Below, piece after piece: positions 5,678 to 16,163 of a stretch of 32,000 nt of DNA (position 1 is the stretch's first letter; each line of letters opens with the position of its first letter). Source of the stretch: Candidatus Lokiarchaeum ossiferum (lineage in GTDB: Archaea; Asgardarchaeota; Lokiarchaeia; Sigyniarchaeales; Promethearchaeaceae). The stretch spans positions 4,410,001 through 4,442,000 of the forward strand of contig CP104013.1 in NCBI GenBank assembly GCA_025839675.1, written 5' to 3'. Made by a program: the position numbers and the translations under genes. The notes beneath the pieces are model-generated. The model had not been told where the DNA came from, searched no databases, and saw nothing but the letters and a program-made list of their open reading frames with translations.

Positions 5678-6901
5678 TTGAGTTCAAATTTGACATTAGA
5701 AGCGAAATTGGCATATCAACGTTATCTTGACGCTAATGGAATTGATGCTCGGATACAATATTTGCAAGAATTTCTTTCAGAAGTACCAAAACACAAAGCT
5801 ACTGAGAAGATTGTTGCTCTAAACAAAACTAAACTTTCTAAATTAAAGGCAGAAAAAGAAACTATAGAACTAAGAAAAAAAGCATTATCTGCGGGGAGTG
5901 AAGATCCATTTGCCGTTAAACGGGAACCACACACAATCCAGGTTATGATGATAAGCGATTTAATGGATAAAGGACAAGGTGTTGGGAAATCAACGTTGCT
6001 AAAGAATCTCACAGGGGAGTCTTCAGTAAAACCAGGAATATATACACCAGAACCCAAAGTGGGGATTTATGATTGGGAACATGTTAAATTTCAGGTAATT
6101 GAAATGCCTTCTTTACAAAATTCTTTAAATCTTTCCAAAATTTTAGCAAGCATTAGAAATACGGATATACTAACTATTCTTCTGGATTTATCCCAAAACC
6201 CTTTGGTTCAATTTAATAACATAGTTTCTCTTCTTACTGACCATAATATCTTTTTAAATCGTGCTCCACCAAATATCAAAATTGAACGTACTGGATCTGG
6301 TGGAATTCAGTTATTTTTCCATTCAAAGGAGGCTAAAAAATCCGAAAATATGTCGGAATTCATATTAGAAATGGTGAAGGCATATGGTTTACAAAATGCT
6401 ACGATAAAAATCTATGAAGAAGTAACTGTAGAAACTTTAGAGATGGCGTTTAATCGGAAATCTGTCTATAAACCCGCAATTATCTTAGCAACTAAGGCAG
6501 ATGTGGCTAATACTAAAAAAAATTATGAACTTTTTAAGAAAAAGGCTTCTTCTGTAATATCCACACCTTTTGAAATATTACCTGTTGCAGTCATATATTC
6601 TTCAACTGGAGAACAAATTAGGAAAGGAATGGATCATTTTGGTGAAAAAATTCTCCAACATTTGAATCTAATGCGAGTTTATACTAAATCCAAAAAAGGG
6701 GTAGCTGAAAAGCCGTTGGTTGTTCCTTATGAATCAACTATTGGAGATGTCGCGCTGAAGATACATAAGGATCTTTATCACGCATTCAAATTTGCGTATG
6801 TATACAGAGTCAAAGGAAACCATTCAACTACTCGAATACGTACTGGGCTAAATTTTCTTGTGCAAGAAGATGATGTGATTGAGATATTTTCCCGATTTTA
6901 A
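5678..6901 (+). CDS. DRG/Rbg-family (Obg-like) GTP-binding protein with a C-terminal TGS domain and non-canonical G motifs
   Basis: TTG start 8 nt after a GGAGGT Shine-Dalgarno at 5664-5669. The 'KHKATEKIVALNKTKLSKLKAE' helix, 'GVGKSTLLKNLTG', 'LNRAPPNIKIERTGSGGIQL', 'ATKAD' and the TGS block 'MRVYTKSKKG...PLVVPYESTIGDVALKIHKDLYHAFKFAYVY...EDDVIEI' all align to my memory of eukaryotic DRG1. Confidence 0.8.
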   Translation: MSSNLTLEAKLAYQRYLDANGIDARIQYLQEFLSEVPKHKATEKIVALNKTKLSKLKAEKETIELRKKALSAGSEDPFAVKREPHTIQVMMISDLMDKGQGVGKSTLLKNLTGESSVKPGIYTPEPKVGIYDWEHVKFQVIEMPSLQNSLNLSKILASIRNTDILTILLDLSQNPLVQFNNIVSLLTDHNIFLNRAPPNIKIERTGSGGIQLFFHSKEAKKSENMSEFILEMVKAYGLQNATIKIYEEVTVETLEMAFNRKSVYKPAIILATKADVANTKKNYELFKKKASSVISTPFEILPVAVIYSSTGEQIRKGMDHFGEKILQHLNLMRVYTKSKKGVAEKPLVVPYESTIGDVALKIHKDLYHAFKFAYVYRVKGNHSTTRIRTGLNFLVQEDDVIEIFSRF

Positions 6902-7092
6902 TCACATATACTATTTATTTCAGTGATCCCAAAACTCTTTATAAATTGCTTCACTAAAAGATTTAGAAATATTTTTGAAATGTTCTTAATATGTTTGATT
7001 TAATAGATTTCTTCCATATTTTTTATATAAGCGAAAAGTGTTACGTTTATACGATCGAAAAAACAATTTAATGCTTGCTAAGAGTGCAAAAC

Positions 7093-7686
7093 ATGTCAAA
7101 TATTGCCGAAACTGATGACCCGGAATCCATTAGATATCAATTTAAAATTGTTCTATTAGGTGATGGTGGTACTGGCAAAACGTGCCTTGTAAATCGGTAT
7201 TGTTTCAATGAATTTCTCGATACCAAACTTACCATTGGGCTATCCTTTAATTCTTATTCTATTCCCGCAGAAGAGAACGGAAAATCTTTTCGCATCGGAT
7301 TATCAATATGGGATTTTGGTGGTCAGGAACGTTTTAGACCGTTATTGCCACAATTCATTAGTGGGTGCAATGGGGCAATTTATGTATTTGATCAACTCGC
7401 GTTCCATTCGCTTGAAAATTTGCATAAAGAGTGGAAAAGCTTACTCCATTCAAATGCAGGAGAAGTGCCCTCTATATTAGTGGGTACAAAAGCAGATTTA
7501 ATTGATGAATCTCACTCCTTGATCGAGAAAGATACTTTGATGGAATATCAGCAGAATTTAGGAGTCTCGAGTTTTGTTAGTACTTCGGCGAAAACAGGTA
7601 AGAATATTAATGAAATTTTCAAACATTTGGTACGGGAAATTCTAAAAAAGTCACCCTTTGCCAAACGGAATATCATAATTCCCTAA
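7093..7686 (+). CDS. Small GTPase of the Ras superfamily, Rab-like
   Basis: G1 'LLGDGGTGKTCL', switch I 'TIGLSF', G3 'WDFGGQERF', G4 'VGTKADL', G5 'TSAKTG'. There is no C-terminal Cys prenylation motif (the protein ends ...NIIIP). ATG 7093 is preferred over the upstream TTG at 7075. Confidence 0.85.
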   Translation: MSNIAETDDPESIRYQFKIVLLGDGGTGKTCLVNRYCFNEFLDTKLTIGLSFNSYSIPAEENGKSFRIGLSIWDFGGQERFRPLLPQFISGCNGAIYVFDQLAFHSLENLHKEWKSLLHSNAGEVPSILVGTKADLIDESHSLIEKDTLMEYQQNLGVSSFVSTSAKTGKNINEIFKHLVREILKKSPFAKRNIIIP

Positions 7687-8489: not shown

Positions 8490-9205
8490 AAGTTTTCACC
8501 TGTATATATTTTTGATAATTCATTATCCATTAATTCTAGCGCAAATTCGTAAAGCCTTCGCATGTATTTCCAGTCTCGGATGTTCCATGTTGGTTTATAA
8601 AATGGGATATTGATAGCATCTAAATTTCGTTCAAAACAATCAATCATTTGATCAAAAATGGATAAAACTGCATCTAAAGCTTCTTGACATAATTCTTTCG
8701 TGGCATACTTTTTACGAATTAATTCAGATACAAATTTTACATCTGGTTCATTGCAGTTAATAAATCGAGTTGCTTGGATGATTGAAATTCGATAGGTAAG
8801 CCGACTAATTAATTCTAACTCACTTCGGATGGGATGAGAGGAAGATGTGTGTTTCAAACTCCAATCTACATTCGCGTATTCAGCAAAAGTTTTTTTAACT
8901 TTTTCATCTAAAAAGTCCGGATCAATTAAATCATCTTCAATATGGTTGAGACATTCAACAGCAGAATTCAAAACAATACGAATCTGAGTTTTCCCTTTTC
9001 GTCTAATATAATCCTTCAAAATATAGTCGTAATAATTATTTGCGGTAAATTCTAAGAAGCTAGAATCTGAGTTTTCTTTAACATATATCCTTCGCAGAAA
9101 ATCTAACCCGGAGTCTAGAAGATTAATGAGGTAGTGGCGAATCAGGTTATAATTACGTTTAATGATAGGATCTGGGATATCGATAATTAAGGGATTTGAG
9201 GACAT
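8486..9205 (-). CDS. Hypothetical, predicted all-helical protein containing a DDLID (DDxxD) motif
   Basis: 239-aa ORF with a 4-nt overlap onto the TrmB gene. It contains 'NHIEDDLIDPDF'. I recognise no family. Confidence 0.5.
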   Translation of the reverse strand: MSSNPLIIDIPDPIIKRNYNLIRHYLINLLDSGLDFLRRIYVKENSDSSFLEFTANNYYDYILKDYIRRKGKTQIRIVLNSAVECLNHIEDDLIDPDFLDEKVKKTFAEYANVDWSLKHTSSSHPIRSELELISRLTYRISIIQATRFINCNEPDVKFVSELIRKKYATKELCQEALDAVLSIFDQMIDCFERNLDAINIPFYKPTWNIRDWKYMRRLYEFALELMDNELSKIYTGENF

Positions 9206-9291
9206 AATAATGACTTGGGTAAATTAATTGGAAGATCAGTTTTTTTAGAGAGGTAAGATTGCAAAATATTTGCTAATAAAAAAGATTTTTC

Positions 9292-10365
9292 CTAACTATT
9301 TGTGATGTAAGTTAGGAGTTGACCATAAAAAGCCATGGAATCATTGCGTAATCCAGGATAAATTTGTTTTAATGAGTTGTAAACTTCATTTATCAAACTT
9401 TTGGAATACATTTCTGCAAAATTTGTTGCTCCTGTTGTCTGATAGATCTCTCGCACTACTTGAAGTTGATCATTAGTTGCTTTTGGATTCCCTAAAATTT
9501 CATTTAATTGTGTTTTTTGTTCTTGGTTAGCATTTTGATATGAAATAATTGTTAAGATTGTTGATTGCCCACTTTTTATATCATGATCGATAGAGTGCAG
9601 TTTTGGATCTCCGAATGTGCCATTGATATCATTCTGTATTTGTTCAACAATTCCTACTTTATTCATAGCCTCCATTAATGGTTTCATCTGAGATTTGCGT
9701 GCATTTCCAAAAATAGCCCCTAAGGCAACTGCTGTTTCCATTTGTTTTGCTCGTTTATCTGCTAAGATAAGATAATTTTCCAGGGTGATCTTATCAAGAG
9801 AAATCTCTCGTTTATAATATTCGTCTAACAAATTACTCCGAGTAACTCCTGCTAAACCCGATAAATAAACTTGAAGTGCCTTTGATTTACGCTTATGATC
9901 GAACTTACTATCGGTGATGATTTTTGAACCAAAGATCGATGTTAGATTTCCTCCATAGATTGCGGATGCTGTCTCGTAATTTTCTCCATTATTGTGCTTT
10001 TTTGTAAATTTTTCTCCCATAAACCGATGAAAAGTTTTCTTTCCTCGTCTGAATTCTTCTTGATCAATTAAATCATCCAACATTAGATTGGAAATGTGCA
10101 TTAACTCAATCGCAATGCTGACTTGGTATATTTGTTCTGCATTATCTAATATATTTCTCTCGGAACTAATACCTTTGAACGTTTCTATCAAACTAATTGG
10201 GTGAAGTCTTCTTCCTCCTTGAATCACAAATTGAGATCCATAGGTAAGAAATTCTCTCAAAAATGGTTCTTCTTCTAATTCAATTGCCTTTTTATAAAAA
10301 TTTTGAATAAGTAGATCAATTTTTTTCTTTTCTTTCTTCAAATGTTTAGCAAATTCCACATCCAT
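9292..10365 (-). CDS. trans-Polyprenyl diphosphate synthase homolog (GGPPS/FPPS superfamily) with an intact first and a degenerate second Asp-rich motif
   Basis: FARM 'LMLDDLIDQEEFRRGKKTFH' lies at 10063-10077. The SARM position reads 'EQIQNDINGTFGDPK...DIKSGQSTILTI' (NDING at 9619-9633) instead of DDxxD. ATG 10365 is preceded by a GGGGG Shine-Dalgarno-like run. Confidence 0.75.
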   Translation of the reverse strand: MDVEFAKHLKKEKKKIDLLIQNFYKKAIELEEEPFLREFLTYGSQFVIQGGRRLHPISLIETFKGISSERNILDNAEQIYQVSIAIELMHISNLMLDDLIDQEEFRRGKKTFHRFMGEKFTKKHNNGENYETASAIYGGNLTSIFGSKIITDSKFDHKRKSKALQVYLSGLAGVTRSNLLDEYYKREISLDKITLENYLILADKRAKQMETAVALGAIFGNARKSQMKPLMEAMNKVGIVEQIQNDINGTFGDPKLHSIDHDIKSGQSTILTIISYQNANQEQKTQLNEILGNPKATNDQLQVVREIYQTTGATNFAEMYSKSLINEVYNSLKQIYPGLRNDSMAFYGQLLTYITNS

Positions 10366-10445
10366 CAATTTTCCCCCTAAATTATCCTATACTATTAAAT
10401 AGCCAAAGAAACCTTAAAGAGTATTGATATAATCTCGAAAAAAAA

Positions 10446-11360
10446 TTATAACCCTCGGAAATATTCTGGTTTCAAAGATTGAGGGTTCTTTATTCCTTGA
10501 TCAATAGTAGTCAACAATTTTTGTTTGTCTTTGGAAAGGATTCCTTTCAACGGAAGATAATTGGATGCATGATTGGCTCGAAAAATGCAACCGTTCAGAT
10601 CATCCGATATGTTTTCAATTATCATTCTTAATTCTTCCAAAATTTGAAAGCTACTCATGGGGTGTAATTTGTGAGATAGAACTTCTTGTTCTATCGGTGT
10701 TCCTGGAGGGATCATCAAGGTTAGTGCCGAAATATACCATGTTGTTGGCGAAAGTGGATTCATGTGATTAATTAATTCCGCTGTCTTAATTGCATGTCGA
10801 CGGCTTTCTTGTTCATTACTTCCTGCTAATCCTAATATAATTGTTCCGCTAAAAACAATTCCTGCTCTATGACATTTTTGAGCAGCTTTTGCCAATTCTT
10901 CTGCATTAGTGCGCTTTTTTATTCGGTCTAGTAGGATATCATCACCCGTTTCAATTCCTACGTATACCATATTTAATCCTGATTGAGCGATTTTTCTTAA
11001 ATCCTCATCTGATTTTCGATTAATATCCTTCGCATGTGCATAAGCACTAATCCGTTGCAAATTTGGGTGAATCTTATAGCCATATTCAGAAATTTCAATG
11101 AGATCTGCTGGTTTCATCACAAAAGCATTCCCATCCAATAGAAAAATTCGTTCGATTTGATTTTTATACAGAATTTTTGCAGTTTCAATGTCCTTTTTGA
11201 TATCAAAAACATCACGAATTGCAAATTTTTTATCCTTGTAAGGGTAGCAGTAGGTACACTTGAAGGAACATCCAATAGTTGCAGTTAATAAAAGAGATTT
11301 TTTTCCTTCGGAAGGAGGTCGATAAACTGGTTCACTATAAAACAATTCTGGAGGGGTCAC
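10446..11360 (-). CDS. Radical SAM domain protein, specific function unknown
   Basis: CxxxCxxC cluster motif 'GCSFKCTYCYP', an N-terminal 'YRPPSEG', a 'GIETGDD' TIM-barrel core and a C-terminal 'RANHASNYLPLKG'. GTG start, with no nearby Met. Confidence 0.75.
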   Translation of the reverse strand: MTPPELFYSEPVYRPPSEGKKSLLLTATIGCSFKCTYCYPYKDKKFAIRDVFDIKKDIETAKILYKNQIERIFLLDGNAFVMKPADLIEISEYGYKIHPNLQRISAYAHAKDINRKSDEDLRKIAQSGLNMVYVGIETGDDILLDRIKKRTNAEELAKAAQKCHRAGIVFSGTIILGLAGSNEQESRRHAIKTAELINHMNPLSPTTWYISALTLMIPPGTPIEQEVLSHKLHPMSSFQILEELRMIIENISDDLNGCIFRANHASNYLPLKGILSKDKQKLLTTIDQGIKNPQSLKPEYFRGL

Positions 11361-11485
11361 AAACTAGTTAAATCCATTAAAACCAAAAAATTTTTTTTAA
11401 ATGGCACTTTTTTTTTTTACACCGGTCTTTATTTTACGATTACGATTATTAACATTGAACTTATGTAATTTTTAGAGTGTGTAAA

Positions 11486-12340
11486 ATGGCAAAAAAAGCA
11501 TCTAAATCCAAGAAAAATATTCGAACAATTGCGTGTAAACACCTCGAATCCATTAACGCGGTAAGCAATGCGGGAAACCCTCTTTGTTACTGTTCCAAAC
11601 GTGAATTTACGATTTCTCCTTATAATTTAGTTTGTCAAGTTTGTGATATCTATAAACCAAACCCTCAAGATATATCTCATGCTGAAATGTATGTGGCAGA
11701 TGATGCTGGGGATTTTGAATATAGCATTGATGATATCGAAATTAGCGATGATGATTTTGAATCTGAACCCGATATCGAAGAAGATGAAGAATTTGATGAT
11801 ATTCCTGTAAAGAAGAAGAAAACTAAAAAAGCCGCTCCTGTCACCGAAGAGGATGATGATGAAGACATCGAAATAGAAAAAGTAGTTGAAGAAGAAGATG
11901 ATGTCGGAATTGTTATTGGACTCGAGAAAGAAGAAGAAGAAGAAGAACTCGATTATGTGGACGAGCGCGAAGAAGGATTGGGTAAGAAACACGGGACTCT
12001 TGGAAAGGATGACGACGAAGAAGAAGAAGAAGAAGAACTTGATGAGGAGTTAGATGATTTAGATGATGAATTTGATTCTGCCAATTCTTCTGCTGATGAT
12101 GGGGATGATGATAGTGATGATGAGGATGATGATTACGATTTTGAGGAAGAGGTCATCGCCAAAATCAAAACAATCGGTGATAAAGAAATTTGTCCATTCT
12201 GCCAAAAATCAAAAGTATCCGTTTTACGTCATATTACAAAGTGTAAACGAGCCCCTGCCGAAGCGATCGCCGCTTATGCAAAATATAAAACCAAGAAAAA
12301 GAAAACAACTCGCAAAAAGAAAACTACTGCGAAAAAGTAA
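11486..12340 (+). CDS. Zinc-finger / polyacidic / lysine-rich-tail protein (possible chromatin or chaperone-like protein)
   Basis: Basic N-terminus (MAKKASKSKK). Cys cluster C..CYC..CQVC. About 170 aa of D/E-rich low complexity. A C-x2-C-x9-H-x3-C finger (CPFCQKSKVSVLRHITKC, 12191-12244). The tail is KYKTKKKKTTRKKKTTAKK. Confidence 0.6.
   Translation: MAKKASKSKKNIRTIACKHLESINAVSNAGNPLCYCSKREFTISPYNLVCQVCDIYKPNPQDISHAEMYVADDAGDFEYSIDDIEISDDDFESEPDIEEDEEFDDIPVKKKKTKKAAPVTEEDDDEDIEIEKVVEEEDDVGIVIGLEKEEEEEELDYVDEREEGLGKKHGTLGKDDDEEEEEEELDEELDDLDDEFDSANSSADDGDDDSDDEDDDYDFEEEVIAKIKTIGDKEICPFCQKSKVSVLRHITKCKRAPAEAIAAYAKYKTKKKKTTRKKKTTAKK
11930..11947 (+). repeat. (GAA)6 trinucleotide repeat in frame (EEEEEE)
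   Basis: Counted directly in the acidic-protein CDS. Confidence 0.9.
12017..12037 (+). repeat. (GAA)7 trinucleotide repeat in frame (EEEEEEE)
   Basis: Counted directly in the acidic-protein CDS. Confidence 0.9.
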
Positions 12341-12359: not shown

Positions 12360-12890
12360 TTAACTTGATTTTCCAAACAGTAAATTCTTCAAAGCCAAAT
12401 ATTCTTCTTCTATTGATTGAGGTTTATTGAAGAATTTTTCATTTAAATGAGTTCGGATAGAATGTATAAGATTGGTGATGTTCTGATTTGTTCTTCCCAC
12501 TGAATTTAAATTCGTTAATTCCATATCAGATTCTAGTTTTTTCTGAACTTGTCGAGCTATTTCCTTGAGATCAATGCCAAACGCATGAACTTTCATTGGA
12601 ATTATTAGCATTATGGCATAGCGTAATAAATTCCCACGAGCTTGTTGATTATTGGCTTGAATTCTCTGAATTCGGATCATACATGGTTGATCGAACTTAT
12701 TCAAGATAAAAAGGGCAAGATCTTCCGTTTTAGATGCTAGCGAATCTTGCAATATGTTCCTTTGTATTTTCTCAGATAGCAAACTTAAATCCGAACAATC
12801 GCCAATATATAGGGGACCTAGTTTAGTATGGTAATGAGCCAATGCCACTCCAATTTTGGGTTCATTTTCTAATGAAGATTCTATCTGCAT
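12360..12890 (-). CDS. Stand-alone longin-domain protein resembling the N-terminal (GAP) domain of folliculin/Lst7
   Basis: ATG 12890 follows an AAGGAG Shine-Dalgarno (complement of 12899-12904) at 8-nt spacing. 'VALAHYHTKLGPLYIG' resembles FLCN 'VALCHFCELHGPRTLF' and Lst7 'SLAHFCDKHGPRII'. 'NNQQARGNLLRYAIMLIIP' resembles FLCN 'DSLARGFQRWYSIITIMMD' and Lst7 'DENARGNERRYCFILTVD'. The comparison sequences are recalled from memory. Confidence 0.5.
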   Translation of the reverse strand: MQIESSLENEPKIGVALAHYHTKLGPLYIGDCSDLSLLSEKIQRNILQDSLASKTEDLALFILNKFDQPCMIRIQRIQANNQQARGNLLRYAIMLIIPMKVHAFGIDLKEIARQVQKKLESDMELTNLNSVGRTNQNITNLIHSIRTHLNEKFFNKPQSIEEEYLALKNLLFGKSS

Positions 12891-12944: not shown

Positions 12945-13460
12945 CTAAATATCTATTATAGATATTGCTGAAGTATTTAAAGGTTCGGTGTTAAGCTCAA
13001 CAATAGCGAATGTTGATCTATCTGCCAAAAACCCCGATACTGTCCCAGGATTTAAAACTATAGTTCGTCCTTCCTTCTTGATTTGAATTTGATGGGTGTG
13101 GCCGGTGCATACAAGATCATATTGCTGAGATTTAATGATATTTTTAAGAAGGAGGGGATTTGTCCCGTGATAAATTGCTATAGATTTTCCATCCCAAACG
13201 GTTTCATAAAAATCTCCTTTAAATTGTAATGTTTCTCCAAAATGTTTCAACATTCCGGCTCTTTCTCCATCGTTATTCCCAAAGACTCCTATGGCTTCAA
13301 CACCTGTTCCCTCTAATTTCTTCATTGGGCGAACCATGAAAGGTGATATCACATCCCCACAATGGATAATTTTATCTACCTTCTTTTGTAAAAAGATTTC
13401 AATCGTTTGCTCAATTTTATCCCATTGATCATGGGTGTCGGAAAAAACTCCAATTTTCAT
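12945..13460 (-). CDS. MJ0936/YfcE-type metallophosphoesterase (phosphodiesterase)
   Basis: Motifs 'MKIGVFSDTHD', 'HCGDV', 'GNNDGE' and 'TGHTH'. ATG 13460 is preferred over the TTG at 13469. Confidence 0.8.
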   Translation of the reverse strand: MKIGVFSDTHDQWDKIEQTIEIFLQKKVDKIIHCGDVISPFMVRPMKKLEGTGVEAIGVFGNNDGERAGMLKHFGETLQFKGDFYETVWDGKSIAIYHGTNPLLLKNIIKSQQYDLVCTGHTHQIQIKKEGRTIVLNPGTVSGFLADRSTFAIVELNTEPLNTSAISIIDI

Positions 13461-13528
13461 AGATATCAATCATCATTTCGGGCTAAAAAATGTTGTTTAT
13501 TAACGAAGGAGCGCTATTAAAGGTAGGA

Positions 13529-14903: not shown

Positions 14904-16163
14904 ATGAAAAAAAACGCTTTGCCAATTGGGGAACAGGAATCTGATAATGGGTTCTTTTGTGATTGTTGTGGCTCATCCAGCGTGTTTCATGATGAATTTG
15001 GTCATTTTGTGTGCCATGATTGCGGGTTATGTTGTGAAGATCCTGTAATCAACGCTTCCTTAGCTCCCTTGAATAAAAATCGGGAAGGAATCCTTCTCAT
15101 GCATCATTCTACCAAAATCGGAGAAGGTACTTTGATAGGTTCCAAGAAGGAACGTTCATCACGAAAATTTGCTCGCTTATCTCGATTACAAAATATTTGT
15201 AATACTACTCCAAAAGATTCGGCTTATATCCATTTTAATCAATTGTGTGCTGAATTTGATATCGTTTTAGATATGTCCCTCTTTATGAATCTTTTTGAAA
15301 AATTGTTTCACAAGATGCCTGCTTGTACGAAAGCACGTAATATTTCCAAATTTTGTACGACCCTTTTTATTATTGTTTGCCGGAAATTTGGTCAAGACTT
15401 TGAAATAAAAAAAGTCTTAGACTTTGCCCAAATGGGTTTGAAGGATTACTATGCAATTCGTCGTCCAATCCATAATGTTGAGCCAAATACAGATCGTCTT
15501 TCAGTGAAGGATTTGGAAAATTTCTCGGTGAAACTTATTTCTCGACTGGTGGATCAATATGAGCTGGGTTTTACAGTATTTCGCCTAACAAAACACCTTA
15601 TCCGAAATTATCGTCAATATTTAGGGGAGAAGGTTCGTATAATCGCAGGTTCTGCTTTAATTGTTGCCTTAGAATATTTAAAACATCCAATTAAATTGAG
15701 TGCTTTCCAAATTTCCAAAGATTTAGGTGTTTCTGCCTCTACAGTATATACTCGTAAGAAACAATTTCCAATGGAAAAATTGCAGTGGAATTCTGAATTA
15801 GAAGAAACAAAAACTATTAATTTATCACCCAAATTAAAAACTGACTTAGTTGGAGCTTTGAATCAAAACGTTAATTCTATTGTATCGGCAAACTCTATTA
15901 TTAAATCGAACAAAATTCGAGGAGATTTGAAAAATCCAACCCAATGTGGTTCAATCAATACATCCTTCAAATTTCATTTGAATAGCATTATATCAATTCC
16001 ATTACAAAATTATTATGGAAATTGGCTTAATCTCATATTAAGAGCAAAAAACTATTCTGATTTGTTTTTATACTCAAGTCACGTTCCCTTAATATCTCCT
16101 CTTAGTTGGACTAAGAATTCAATCAATAGTAATGCAAATAGAGGAGAGTTTCATTCGTCTTGA
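14904..16163 (+). CDS. Transcription factor B (TFIIB)-family protein, divergent, with a roughly 120-aa Asn/Ser-rich C-terminal extension
   Basis: N-terminal zinc ribbon C-x2-C-x14-C-x2-C (CDCCGSSSVFHDEFGHFVCHDCG, 14958-15023). A 'ARLSRLQ' linker. Cyclin-fold-like helices. An HTH-like 'ISKDLGVSASTVYTRKKQF', comparable to the TFB C-terminal helix. Confidence 0.65.
   Translation: MKKNALPIGEQESDNGFFCDCCGSSSVFHDEFGHFVCHDCGLCCEDPVINASLAPLNKNREGILLMHHSTKIGEGTLIGSKKERSSRKFARLSRLQNICNTTPKDSAYIHFNQLCAEFDIVLDMSLFMNLFEKLFHKMPACTKARNISKFCTTLFIIVCRKFGQDFEIKKVLDFAQMGLKDYYAIRRPIHNVEPNTDRLSVKDLENFSVKLISRLVDQYELGFTVFRLTKHLIRNYRQYLGEKVRIIAGSALIVALEYLKHPIKLSAFQISKDLGVSASTVYTRKKQFPMEKLQWNSELEETKTINLSPKLKTDLVGALNQNVNSIVSANSIIKSNKIRGDLKNPTQCGSINTSFKFHLNSIISIPLQNYYGNWLNLILRAKNYSDLFLYSSHVPLISPLSWTKNSINSNANRGEFHSS

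Follow-up and report, generated by a model that had tools for sequence, protein, structure and literature searches.

A conserved stand-alone longin protein of Lokiarchaeia with similarity to the longin domains of folliculin/Lst7 and NPRL2

The longin gene of Ca. Lokiarchaeum ossiferum and its family

In a 32,000-nucleotide (nt) stretch of the genome of Candidatus Lokiarchaeum ossiferum (contig CP104013.1, positions 4,410,001 to 4,442,000; the whole stretch is called the window in the following, and positions refer to it), a gene on the minus strand at 12360-12890 encodes a protein of 176 amino acids (aa), NEF87_003783, annotated as a hypothetical protein. A preliminary description of this DNA had read it as a stand-alone longin domain of the folliculin (FLCN)/Lst7 type, and our analysis supports this reading as far as homology and fold are concerned: the gene is conserved, its product has a longin fold and a homology-level similarity to Lst7/FLCN, the two sequence motifs shared with these proteins are nearly invariant, and Arg85 is aligned with the arginine of FLCN/Lst7. 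The open reading frame (ORF) list and the sequence itself confirm a reading frame from an ATG at 12890 to a stop codon at 12360-12362, which is included in the coordinates. The Shine-Dalgarno-like hexamer AAGGAG is directly visible at 12904-12899, 8 nt 5' of the ATG on the same strand. The protein matches UYP47498.1/WP_457917053.1 (strain B-35, Ca. Lokiarchaeum ossiferum) exactly, and among the database matches the species has a single copy of the family. A second L. ossiferum entry (P0001, WP_371803034.1, from a 6.27-Mb assembly) carries Q and K where the protein of the window has K42 and N80 (12747-12767 and 12651-12653).

Three short segments stand out in this protein. The first is the block VALAHYHTKLGP (residues 15-26, 12813-12848), which spans the predicted strand β1, the β1-β2 loop and the GP motif (G25-P26, 12813-12818) that opens β2. 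The preliminary description had rightly picked out this block, whereas the range it gave, 12813-12842, covers only the ten residues LAHYHTKLGP (residues 17-26) and not all twelve. The second is the motif A84-R85-G86 in the β4-β5 loop (12633-12641), whose Arg85 is the candidate arginine finger and is encoded, as had been stated, by a CGT codon at 12638-12636. The third, L47-Q48-D49-S50 (LQDS) in helix α1 (12741-12752), is conserved within the family and has no counterpart in FLCN/Lst7; it possibly makes a dimer or GTPase contact. In an alignment of 58 family sequences (A3; counts out of 57 refer to the sequences covering that position), G25 is present in 57/57 homologs and P26 in 55/57, A84 and R85 each in 55/58 and G86 in 56/58, so that Arg85 and the H..K.GP block are conserved as had been expected. 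D49 and S50 are found in all 58 sequences, L47 and Q48 in 57 of them, P98 is invariant, and position 90 is occupied by R in 54 sequences and by K in four. Conservation in the family is thus highest in the GP and ARG blocks and in the family-specific LQDS.

A word-indexed search with the protein returned the L. ossiferum entry and two relatives with 48-55% identity. An exhaustive HMMER search with a three-sequence profile against 1.84 billion representatives yielded 13 proteins, all of the same longin family, and hence no sequences bridging to eukaryotic FLCN. A second profile search extended the set to 61 homolog clusters, of which all named ones belong to Lokiarchaeia ("Promethearchaeota"); they include Prometheoarchaeum syntrophicum MK-D1 (DSAG12_01735), Harpocratesius and many metagenome-assembled genomes (MAGs), so that both Lokiarchaeia in culture, L. 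ossiferum and P. syntrophicum MK-D1, have a member. A pattern scan of the GTDB species genomes, which is not exhaustive since the patterns miss the divergent L. ossiferum branch, found 12 loci, all in Promethearchaeota. Members are annotated throughout as hypothetical or uncharacterized, none has a precomputed Pfam domain, and our literature search returned no paper naming the locus tag, DSAG12_01735 or the accessions, and nothing for "Roadblock-Longin".

Predicted fold and similarity to FLCN/Lst7 and NPRL2

AlphaFold2 gave a model with a mean predicted local distance difference test score (pLDDT) of 72.7 from three sequences and of 85.2 with the 58-sequence alignment (predicted template modelling score, pTM, 0.79). 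The predicted elements are β1 (14-21), β2 (25-31), α1 (40-52), β3 (57-63), β4 (69-80), β5 (88-98), α2 (108-125) and α3 (131-153), followed by an extra C-terminal helix (160-172). Their order, β-β-α-β-β-β-α-α, is that of longin domains, including those of the GTPase-activating protein (GAP) type. The longin sheet is a five-stranded antiparallel one with the strand order 2-1-5-4-3. A roadblock/MglB domain, which was considered as well, follows the order α-β-β-α-β-β-β, unlike the model, which opens with two strands and ends in helices; Robl_LC7 was matched in Pfam neither by the protein of the window nor among the families most often matched by the 58 members, and this reading was rejected on both grounds.

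A Foldseek search of the model against the PDB ranked human NPRL2 in GATOR1 structures first (9v0j_A, 9o5a_H, 9o5d_D and 7t3b_B; E = 1.1e-4 to 6e-4, TM score around 0.55 on the query), followed by FLCN (6ulg_L, 8dhb_J, 6nzd_H), yeast Npr2 (8adl_S, 9h4q_T) and a longin dimer from Lokiarchaeota (8yqg_B); the FLCN and NPRL2 entries were identified by 100% identity of the respective sequences to the PDB chains. No SNARE, TRAPP or adaptin longins appeared among the top 50 hits. The longin fold that had been proposed for the protein is therefore borne out by the predicted topology, and the nearest solved structures are NPRL2, FLCN and Npr2. The Lokiarchaeota Roadblock-Longin dimer 8yqg, likewise an Asgard longin, is of comparable structural similarity (E = 6e-4, TM score 0.57 on the target), but its longin is fused to a roadblock domain whereas the family protein stands alone. 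It represents a different family by sequence, because the family profile searched against PDB sequences finds no FLCN, NPRL2 or longin chain.

Sequence comparison was informative at the level of the family. The protein of the window alone gave only noise against Pfam, NCBIfam and PDB sequences (IFN-gamma, mCpol, vasa helicase), with neither a Folliculin_C nor a DENN match in Pfam, and is therefore not recognisably folliculin-like to standard tools from its sequence alone. When the 58 members were searched against Pfam, the Folliculin family (PF11704) was matched by 44 of them at E ≤ 1 (best 3.1e-4), and the next families by at most seven members each. The match always lies over β4-ARG-β5, at profile positions ~51-80 in most members, and the family consensus reaches E = 0.0016 (18.7 bits).

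A profile-profile comparison with hhalign of the family alignment A3 with a 25-sequence alignment of yeast Lst7 gave a probability of 86.2% (P = 4.9e-6, score 45.1). Among 42 controls, reversed alignments scored 13-14 (probability 0.1-0.2%) and 40 column shuffles had a median score of 13.5 and a maximum of 25.6 (6.5%). The alignment pairs "DPxARGGvqRYAlvLiiP" of the family with "DxxARGNERRYClILTiD" of Lst7, placing ARG on ARG and Arg85 on the Lst7 arginine. With relaxed ends it extends colinearly, IGVALAHYHTKLGP standing opposite ISLAHFCDKHGP, so that the family GP block is aligned with LAHFCDKHGP of Lst7; helix α1 with LQDS falls opposite "LLNSIIKR", with no identical residues. Near-invariance in the homologs and a profile score far above that of reversed and shuffled alignments thus lift the two FLCN/Lst7-like blocks of the preliminary description beyond chance. 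Comparisons with single sequences point the same way with weak statistics: against human FLCN the ARG block is aligned and Arg85 falls on R164 (P = 0.038), and against NPRL2 the family GP block falls on FSEFHPTLGP (P = 0.0098). Alignments in the global mode were uninformative.

As the mark of a GAP-type longin arginine we took equivalence to FLCN R164, NPRL2 R78 or SMCR8 R147. Arg85 has this equivalence through the alignments with the Lst7 ARG and with FLCN R164. For NPRL2 R78 the register allows R85 or R90, R85 being favoured by the ungapped comparison of SRNALLFNL with ARGNLLRYA and by the spacing from GP to Arg (57 residues in NPRL2, 59 in the family), and R90 by a low-confidence alignment. 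The GP motif, in turn, opens the predicted β2 and is aligned with the GP of both Lst7 and NPRL2; this placement agrees with the published definition, which puts GP where the β1-β2 loop ends or β2 begins (PMC12290439).

The family thus shares with the N-terminal longin domain of Lst7/FLCN (PF11704) the longin fold and, in the same order, LAH..K.GP followed by D..ARG...RY. Unlike these proteins it has neither the Cys-rich insertion between β2 and α1 nor a C-terminal DENN domain, the longin core being followed by one extra helix. The NPRL2 longin, its top Foldseek match (E = 1.1e-4, TM score 0.55), resembles it in "FHPTLGP" against "YHTKLGP" and in having no insertion between GP and Arg, but NPRL2 is a protein of 380 aa with further domains inside the DEPDC5-NPRL2-NPRL3 complex, and the sequence match is weak (P ~0.01, GP block only).

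Many LOV and PAS domains also appear further down the Foldseek list (E = 1e-3 to 1e-2). Along with the single-protein Pfam, NCBIfam and PDB searches that gave no significant match, and a window context of metabolic and RNA-modification genes, they could indicate that the resemblance to FLCN/Lst7 arose by convergence or accident and that the protein is a PAS/LOV- or profilin-like α/β sensor or binding domain without a role in GTPase biology. We consider this very improbable. The LOV/PAS matches have TM scores of only ~0.3 on the query and a large root-mean-square deviation, against ~0.55 for NPRL2, and a PAS/LOV sensor was rejected because of these low scores; moreover, the hhalign match to Lst7 lies far above its controls with both motifs in register, and Folliculin is the only recurrent Pfam match among the members.

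A possible role in GTPase regulation

Lst7/FLCN is a GAP for Gtr2/RagC/D, and NPRL2/Npr2 of GATOR1/SEACIT is a GAP for RagA/B that uses Arg78 as its finger. Nutrient signalling through mTORC1 and lysosome biology are controlled by complexes of this type (FLCN-FNIP, GATOR1 and C9orf72-SMCR8), whose components include disease genes and whose longin-based arginine-finger mechanism is unusual.

Given the fold, the alignments and the conservation of both motifs, we see about an even chance that the product is a minimal, single-domain representative of the lineage of GAP-type longins (FLCN/Lst7, NPRL2/Npr2, SMCR8) that would act as a dimeric arginine-finger GAP for a Rag- or Arf-like GTPase; by analogy with these proteins we infer its dimerisation, its binding to a GTPase, its GAP activity and its substrate. 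In such a mechanism the longin domain would mediate dimerisation, yielding a homodimer in most genomes, which have one copy, and a heterodimer where a degenerate second paralog exists. The dimer would dock onto a small GTPase of the Rag/Gtr1- or Arf-like type at its nucleotide-binding face, Arg85 in the β4-β5 loop would enter the active site as an arginine finger and accelerate GTP hydrolysis, and the neighbouring β1-β2 loop with Gly25-Pro26 would shape the catalytic pocket.

The GP motif has been defined as specific to the GAP longins FLCN, NPRL2, SMCR8 and C9orf72, and its combination with the arginine is reported to be absent from the longins of FNIP2, NPRL3, adaptin, TRAPP and DENND (2025, PMC12290439). 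The idea of an FLCN-type longin in Asgard archaea is not new: stand-alone Asgard longins of the FLCN/SMCR8 type, with an arginine finger alongside the GP motif, have been published as proposed GAP-longin relatives (Traffic 2025, PMC12290439). The family shares with them the single longin domain, the GP at the β1-β2 junction, the conserved arginine in the adjacent loop and the structural likeness to FLCN, NPRL2 and SMCR8. Unlike those proteins, for which Heimdallarchaeia are stressed and which carry a UniProt annotation as FLCN/SMCR8 longins, it is seen only in Lokiarchaeia and has no Pfam or UniProt annotation, and it has its own invariant LQDS and the extra C-terminal helix; this comparison is with the published description and not with the 15 Asgard sequences of the paper. 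The gene thus adds an unannotated, Lokiarchaeia-wide family to the Asgard longin relatives that were recently described computationally.

Linkage to GTPase genes in other Lokiarchaeia is suggestive of a GTPase partner, though not proof of one. In MK-D1 (L001 8001-10341, CP042905.2), the gene next to DSAG12_01735, 323 base pairs (bp) downstream and on the same strand, encodes a 496-aa Gtr1_RagA GTPase (8851-10341). A Gtr1_RagA protein of 430 aa with a longin-GTPase-roadblock architecture is encoded, together with a small Arf/Ras GTPase, 5-8 kb downstream in Harpocratesius, L006 and L019, and Rag-like genes lie at 1.3-1.9 kb in L008 and L009. Over all, the distance from the longin gene to Rag/Gtr1-like genes in other Lokiarchaeia is 0.3-8 kb, and about six of 13 lineages have a Rag-like GTPase gene within 10 kb. 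A Pfam scan of three of these linked GTPases placed each of them above the Gtr1_RagA threshold (44-75 bits). We infer from this that the Rag/Gtr1-like multidomain GTPases flanking the ortholog would be the best candidates for a substrate. The more distant of these genes belong to a conserved block of malic enzyme, longin, Ldh_2, TBP, two genes without assignment, the 430-aa Rag-like protein, the small Arf/Ras GTPase and a GvpD/KaiC-like ATPase, which is complete in a Harpocratesius species (L002) and in L006; the GTPase pair was found at matching positions in L014 and L019 by tblastn.

Several observations weigh against a GAP of this lineage. The preliminary description had called for a profile comparison with FLCN/Lst7; a match was obtained for the family with hhalign (86.2% against at most 6.5% in controls) but not at the threshold of PF11704: the protein of the window has no match to it at E ≤ 10, the best scores of ten members and the consensus (19.1 and 18.7 bits) remain below the gathering threshold of 23.3 bits, and all 44 member matches are sub-threshold. 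Identity to Lst7/FLCN is ~20% over the aligned region, the confident hhalign match covers 27 columns only, and the low-confidence NPRL2 extension mentioned above puts R78 on R90 and not on R85. The arrangement of Arg85 in the β4-β5 loop and GP in the β1-β2 loop side by side at the same edge of the sheet would follow from longin topology and is not a measured distance. Eukaryotic GAP longins are heterodimers with a second longin and carry DENN domains, and for the protein of the window neither was found; GAP activity of Asgard longins of this type has itself only been proposed. As to the genes around it, the window contains no Rag-type GTPase and no FNIP/Lst4-like partner, and the nearest GTPase gene, 4.7 kb from the longin gene at 7075-7686 on the plus strand, is of the Rab/Ras-like type (Pfam Ras, E = 1.4e-33). 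MK-D1 has so many small GTPases (74, of which 26 are fusions with a roadblock or longin domain) that finding a Rag-like gene within 10 kb would not be unusual by chance; the linkage moreover reflects in part synteny inherited along with the intervening Ldh_2 and TBP genes, which are likewise conserved. The three outcomes that the preliminary description had itself named as speaking against it, no profile match, a fold other than longin and unconserved motifs, all failed to appear.

Three family members lack the arginine. In P0061 and P0063 ARG is replaced by SPK and GP by GS, and in P0057 ARG is replaced by ISG. P0063 is encoded in tandem with the canonical P0038 in L004, 389 bp upstream of it (9019-9612 and 10001-10483), and P0057 and the canonical P0009 come from the same MAG, so that second-copy status is demonstrated for two of the three; P0061 is found only on a 1.3-kb contig. 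The loci with degenerate paralogs are L004, L005 and L018. The pair of a canonical and a degenerate paralog looks like the catalytic and non-catalytic partners in FLCN-FNIP and NPRL2-NPRL3.

These paralogs bear on an alternative that we regard as a real, if tentative, possibility: the protein could be a true relative of the FLCN/NPRL2 longins and yet no GAP, serving instead as a non-catalytic dimeric platform, a guanine nucleotide exchange factor (GEF) or an effector or scaffold, with Arg and GP used for binding or folding. Longin and roadblock dimers are mostly GEFs or platforms (PMC10933270), the missing DENN domain and second subunit would fit such a role, and the invariant LQDS without FLCN/Lst7 counterpart suggests a lineage-specific interface. 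Against it, the combination of GP and Arg is reported to be specific to GAP longins (PMC12290439), the structure search ranks the catalytic NPRL2 and FLCN first, and the arginine is lost only in second-copy paralogs (demonstrated, as said, in two of three cases), as would be predicted for a catalytic residue of the main copy.

Going beyond the reading as a GAP-type longin, one may ask whether the family works in Lokiarchaeia as a minimal arginine-finger GAP on Rag/Gtr1-like GTPases, with the adjacent Gtr1_RagA protein of MK-D1 as its substrate, and whether lineages with degenerate paralogs represent a step from a homodimer to the catalytic/non-catalytic heterodimer that became fixed in eukaryotes as FLCN-FNIP, NPRL2-NPRL3 and SMCR8-C9orf72. 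We hold this extended version to be rather unlikely as a whole. The MK-D1 longin and the adjoining Rag/Gtr1-like GTPase nevertheless form a concrete protein pair, for which an R85 mutant would serve as control. Should R85 prove to support GAP activity on a GTPase of the Rag type, the control of such GTPases by longin GAPs would be older than eukaryotic endomembranes, and a Rag-GAP module would predate eukaryotes and their lysosomes and be approachable in two cultured Asgard archaea. If there were no GAP activity, the GP/Arg signature could no longer be read as a GAP marker.

Neighbouring genes

The neighbours of the longin gene in the window encode a metallophosphoesterase, an RlmN-like radical-SAM enzyme, an acidic zinc-ribbon-like protein, a second radical-SAM enzyme and a polyprenyl synthase; a search of all ORFs of the window with the family profile revealed no paralog and no second longin. 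Directly upstream on the same (minus) strand, at the distance of 54 bp given in the preliminary description, lies the gene for a 174-aa metallophosphoesterase (12945-13469; Pfam Metallophos_2, E = 3.9e-33). The gap contains no terminator-like site, and the two genes may be co-transcribed. With strand, spacing and the missing terminator in its favour, one could think of the longin protein as a dedicated partner of this enzyme in a two-gene operon and not linked to GTPases, which we deem very improbable: in the other genera (Prometheoarchaeum, Harpocratesius and more Lokiarchaeia) the longin gene comes after a malic-enzyme gene, and the flanks examined there yielded no metallophosphoesterase call. 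A conserved operon with the metallophosphoesterase was rejected because the pairing is not seen in these genera. The one close relative with context, L020, shows downstream genes only, and these follow the same order as in the window, going by gene sizes, strands and a single Pfam assignment (Radical_SAM).

On the other side, the longin gene converges with a plus-strand gene (11477-12340) whose stop codon is 19 bp from its own. The product, of 287 aa, has no Pfam match; both of its ends are Cys-rich and zinc-ribbon-like, its middle is a very long stretch rich in Asp/Glu, and its tail is Lys-rich. At the same position L020 has a gene of similar size (303 aa) in the opposite orientation, likened to it by size and position.

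The Rab/Ras-like gene of the window adjoins a gene for a DRG/Obg-like GTPase with a TGS domain (5678-6901, plus strand), the pair lying 4.7-7 kb from the longin gene, and the Rab/Ras-like product shares 33% identity with the small GTPase encoded in the conserved block of L006. Finally, a plus-strand gene at 14904-16163 encodes a 419-aa protein without a Pfam match at E ≤ 0.001, whose N-terminal CxxC...CxxC zinc-ribbon-like segment is reminiscent of TFB/TFIIB.

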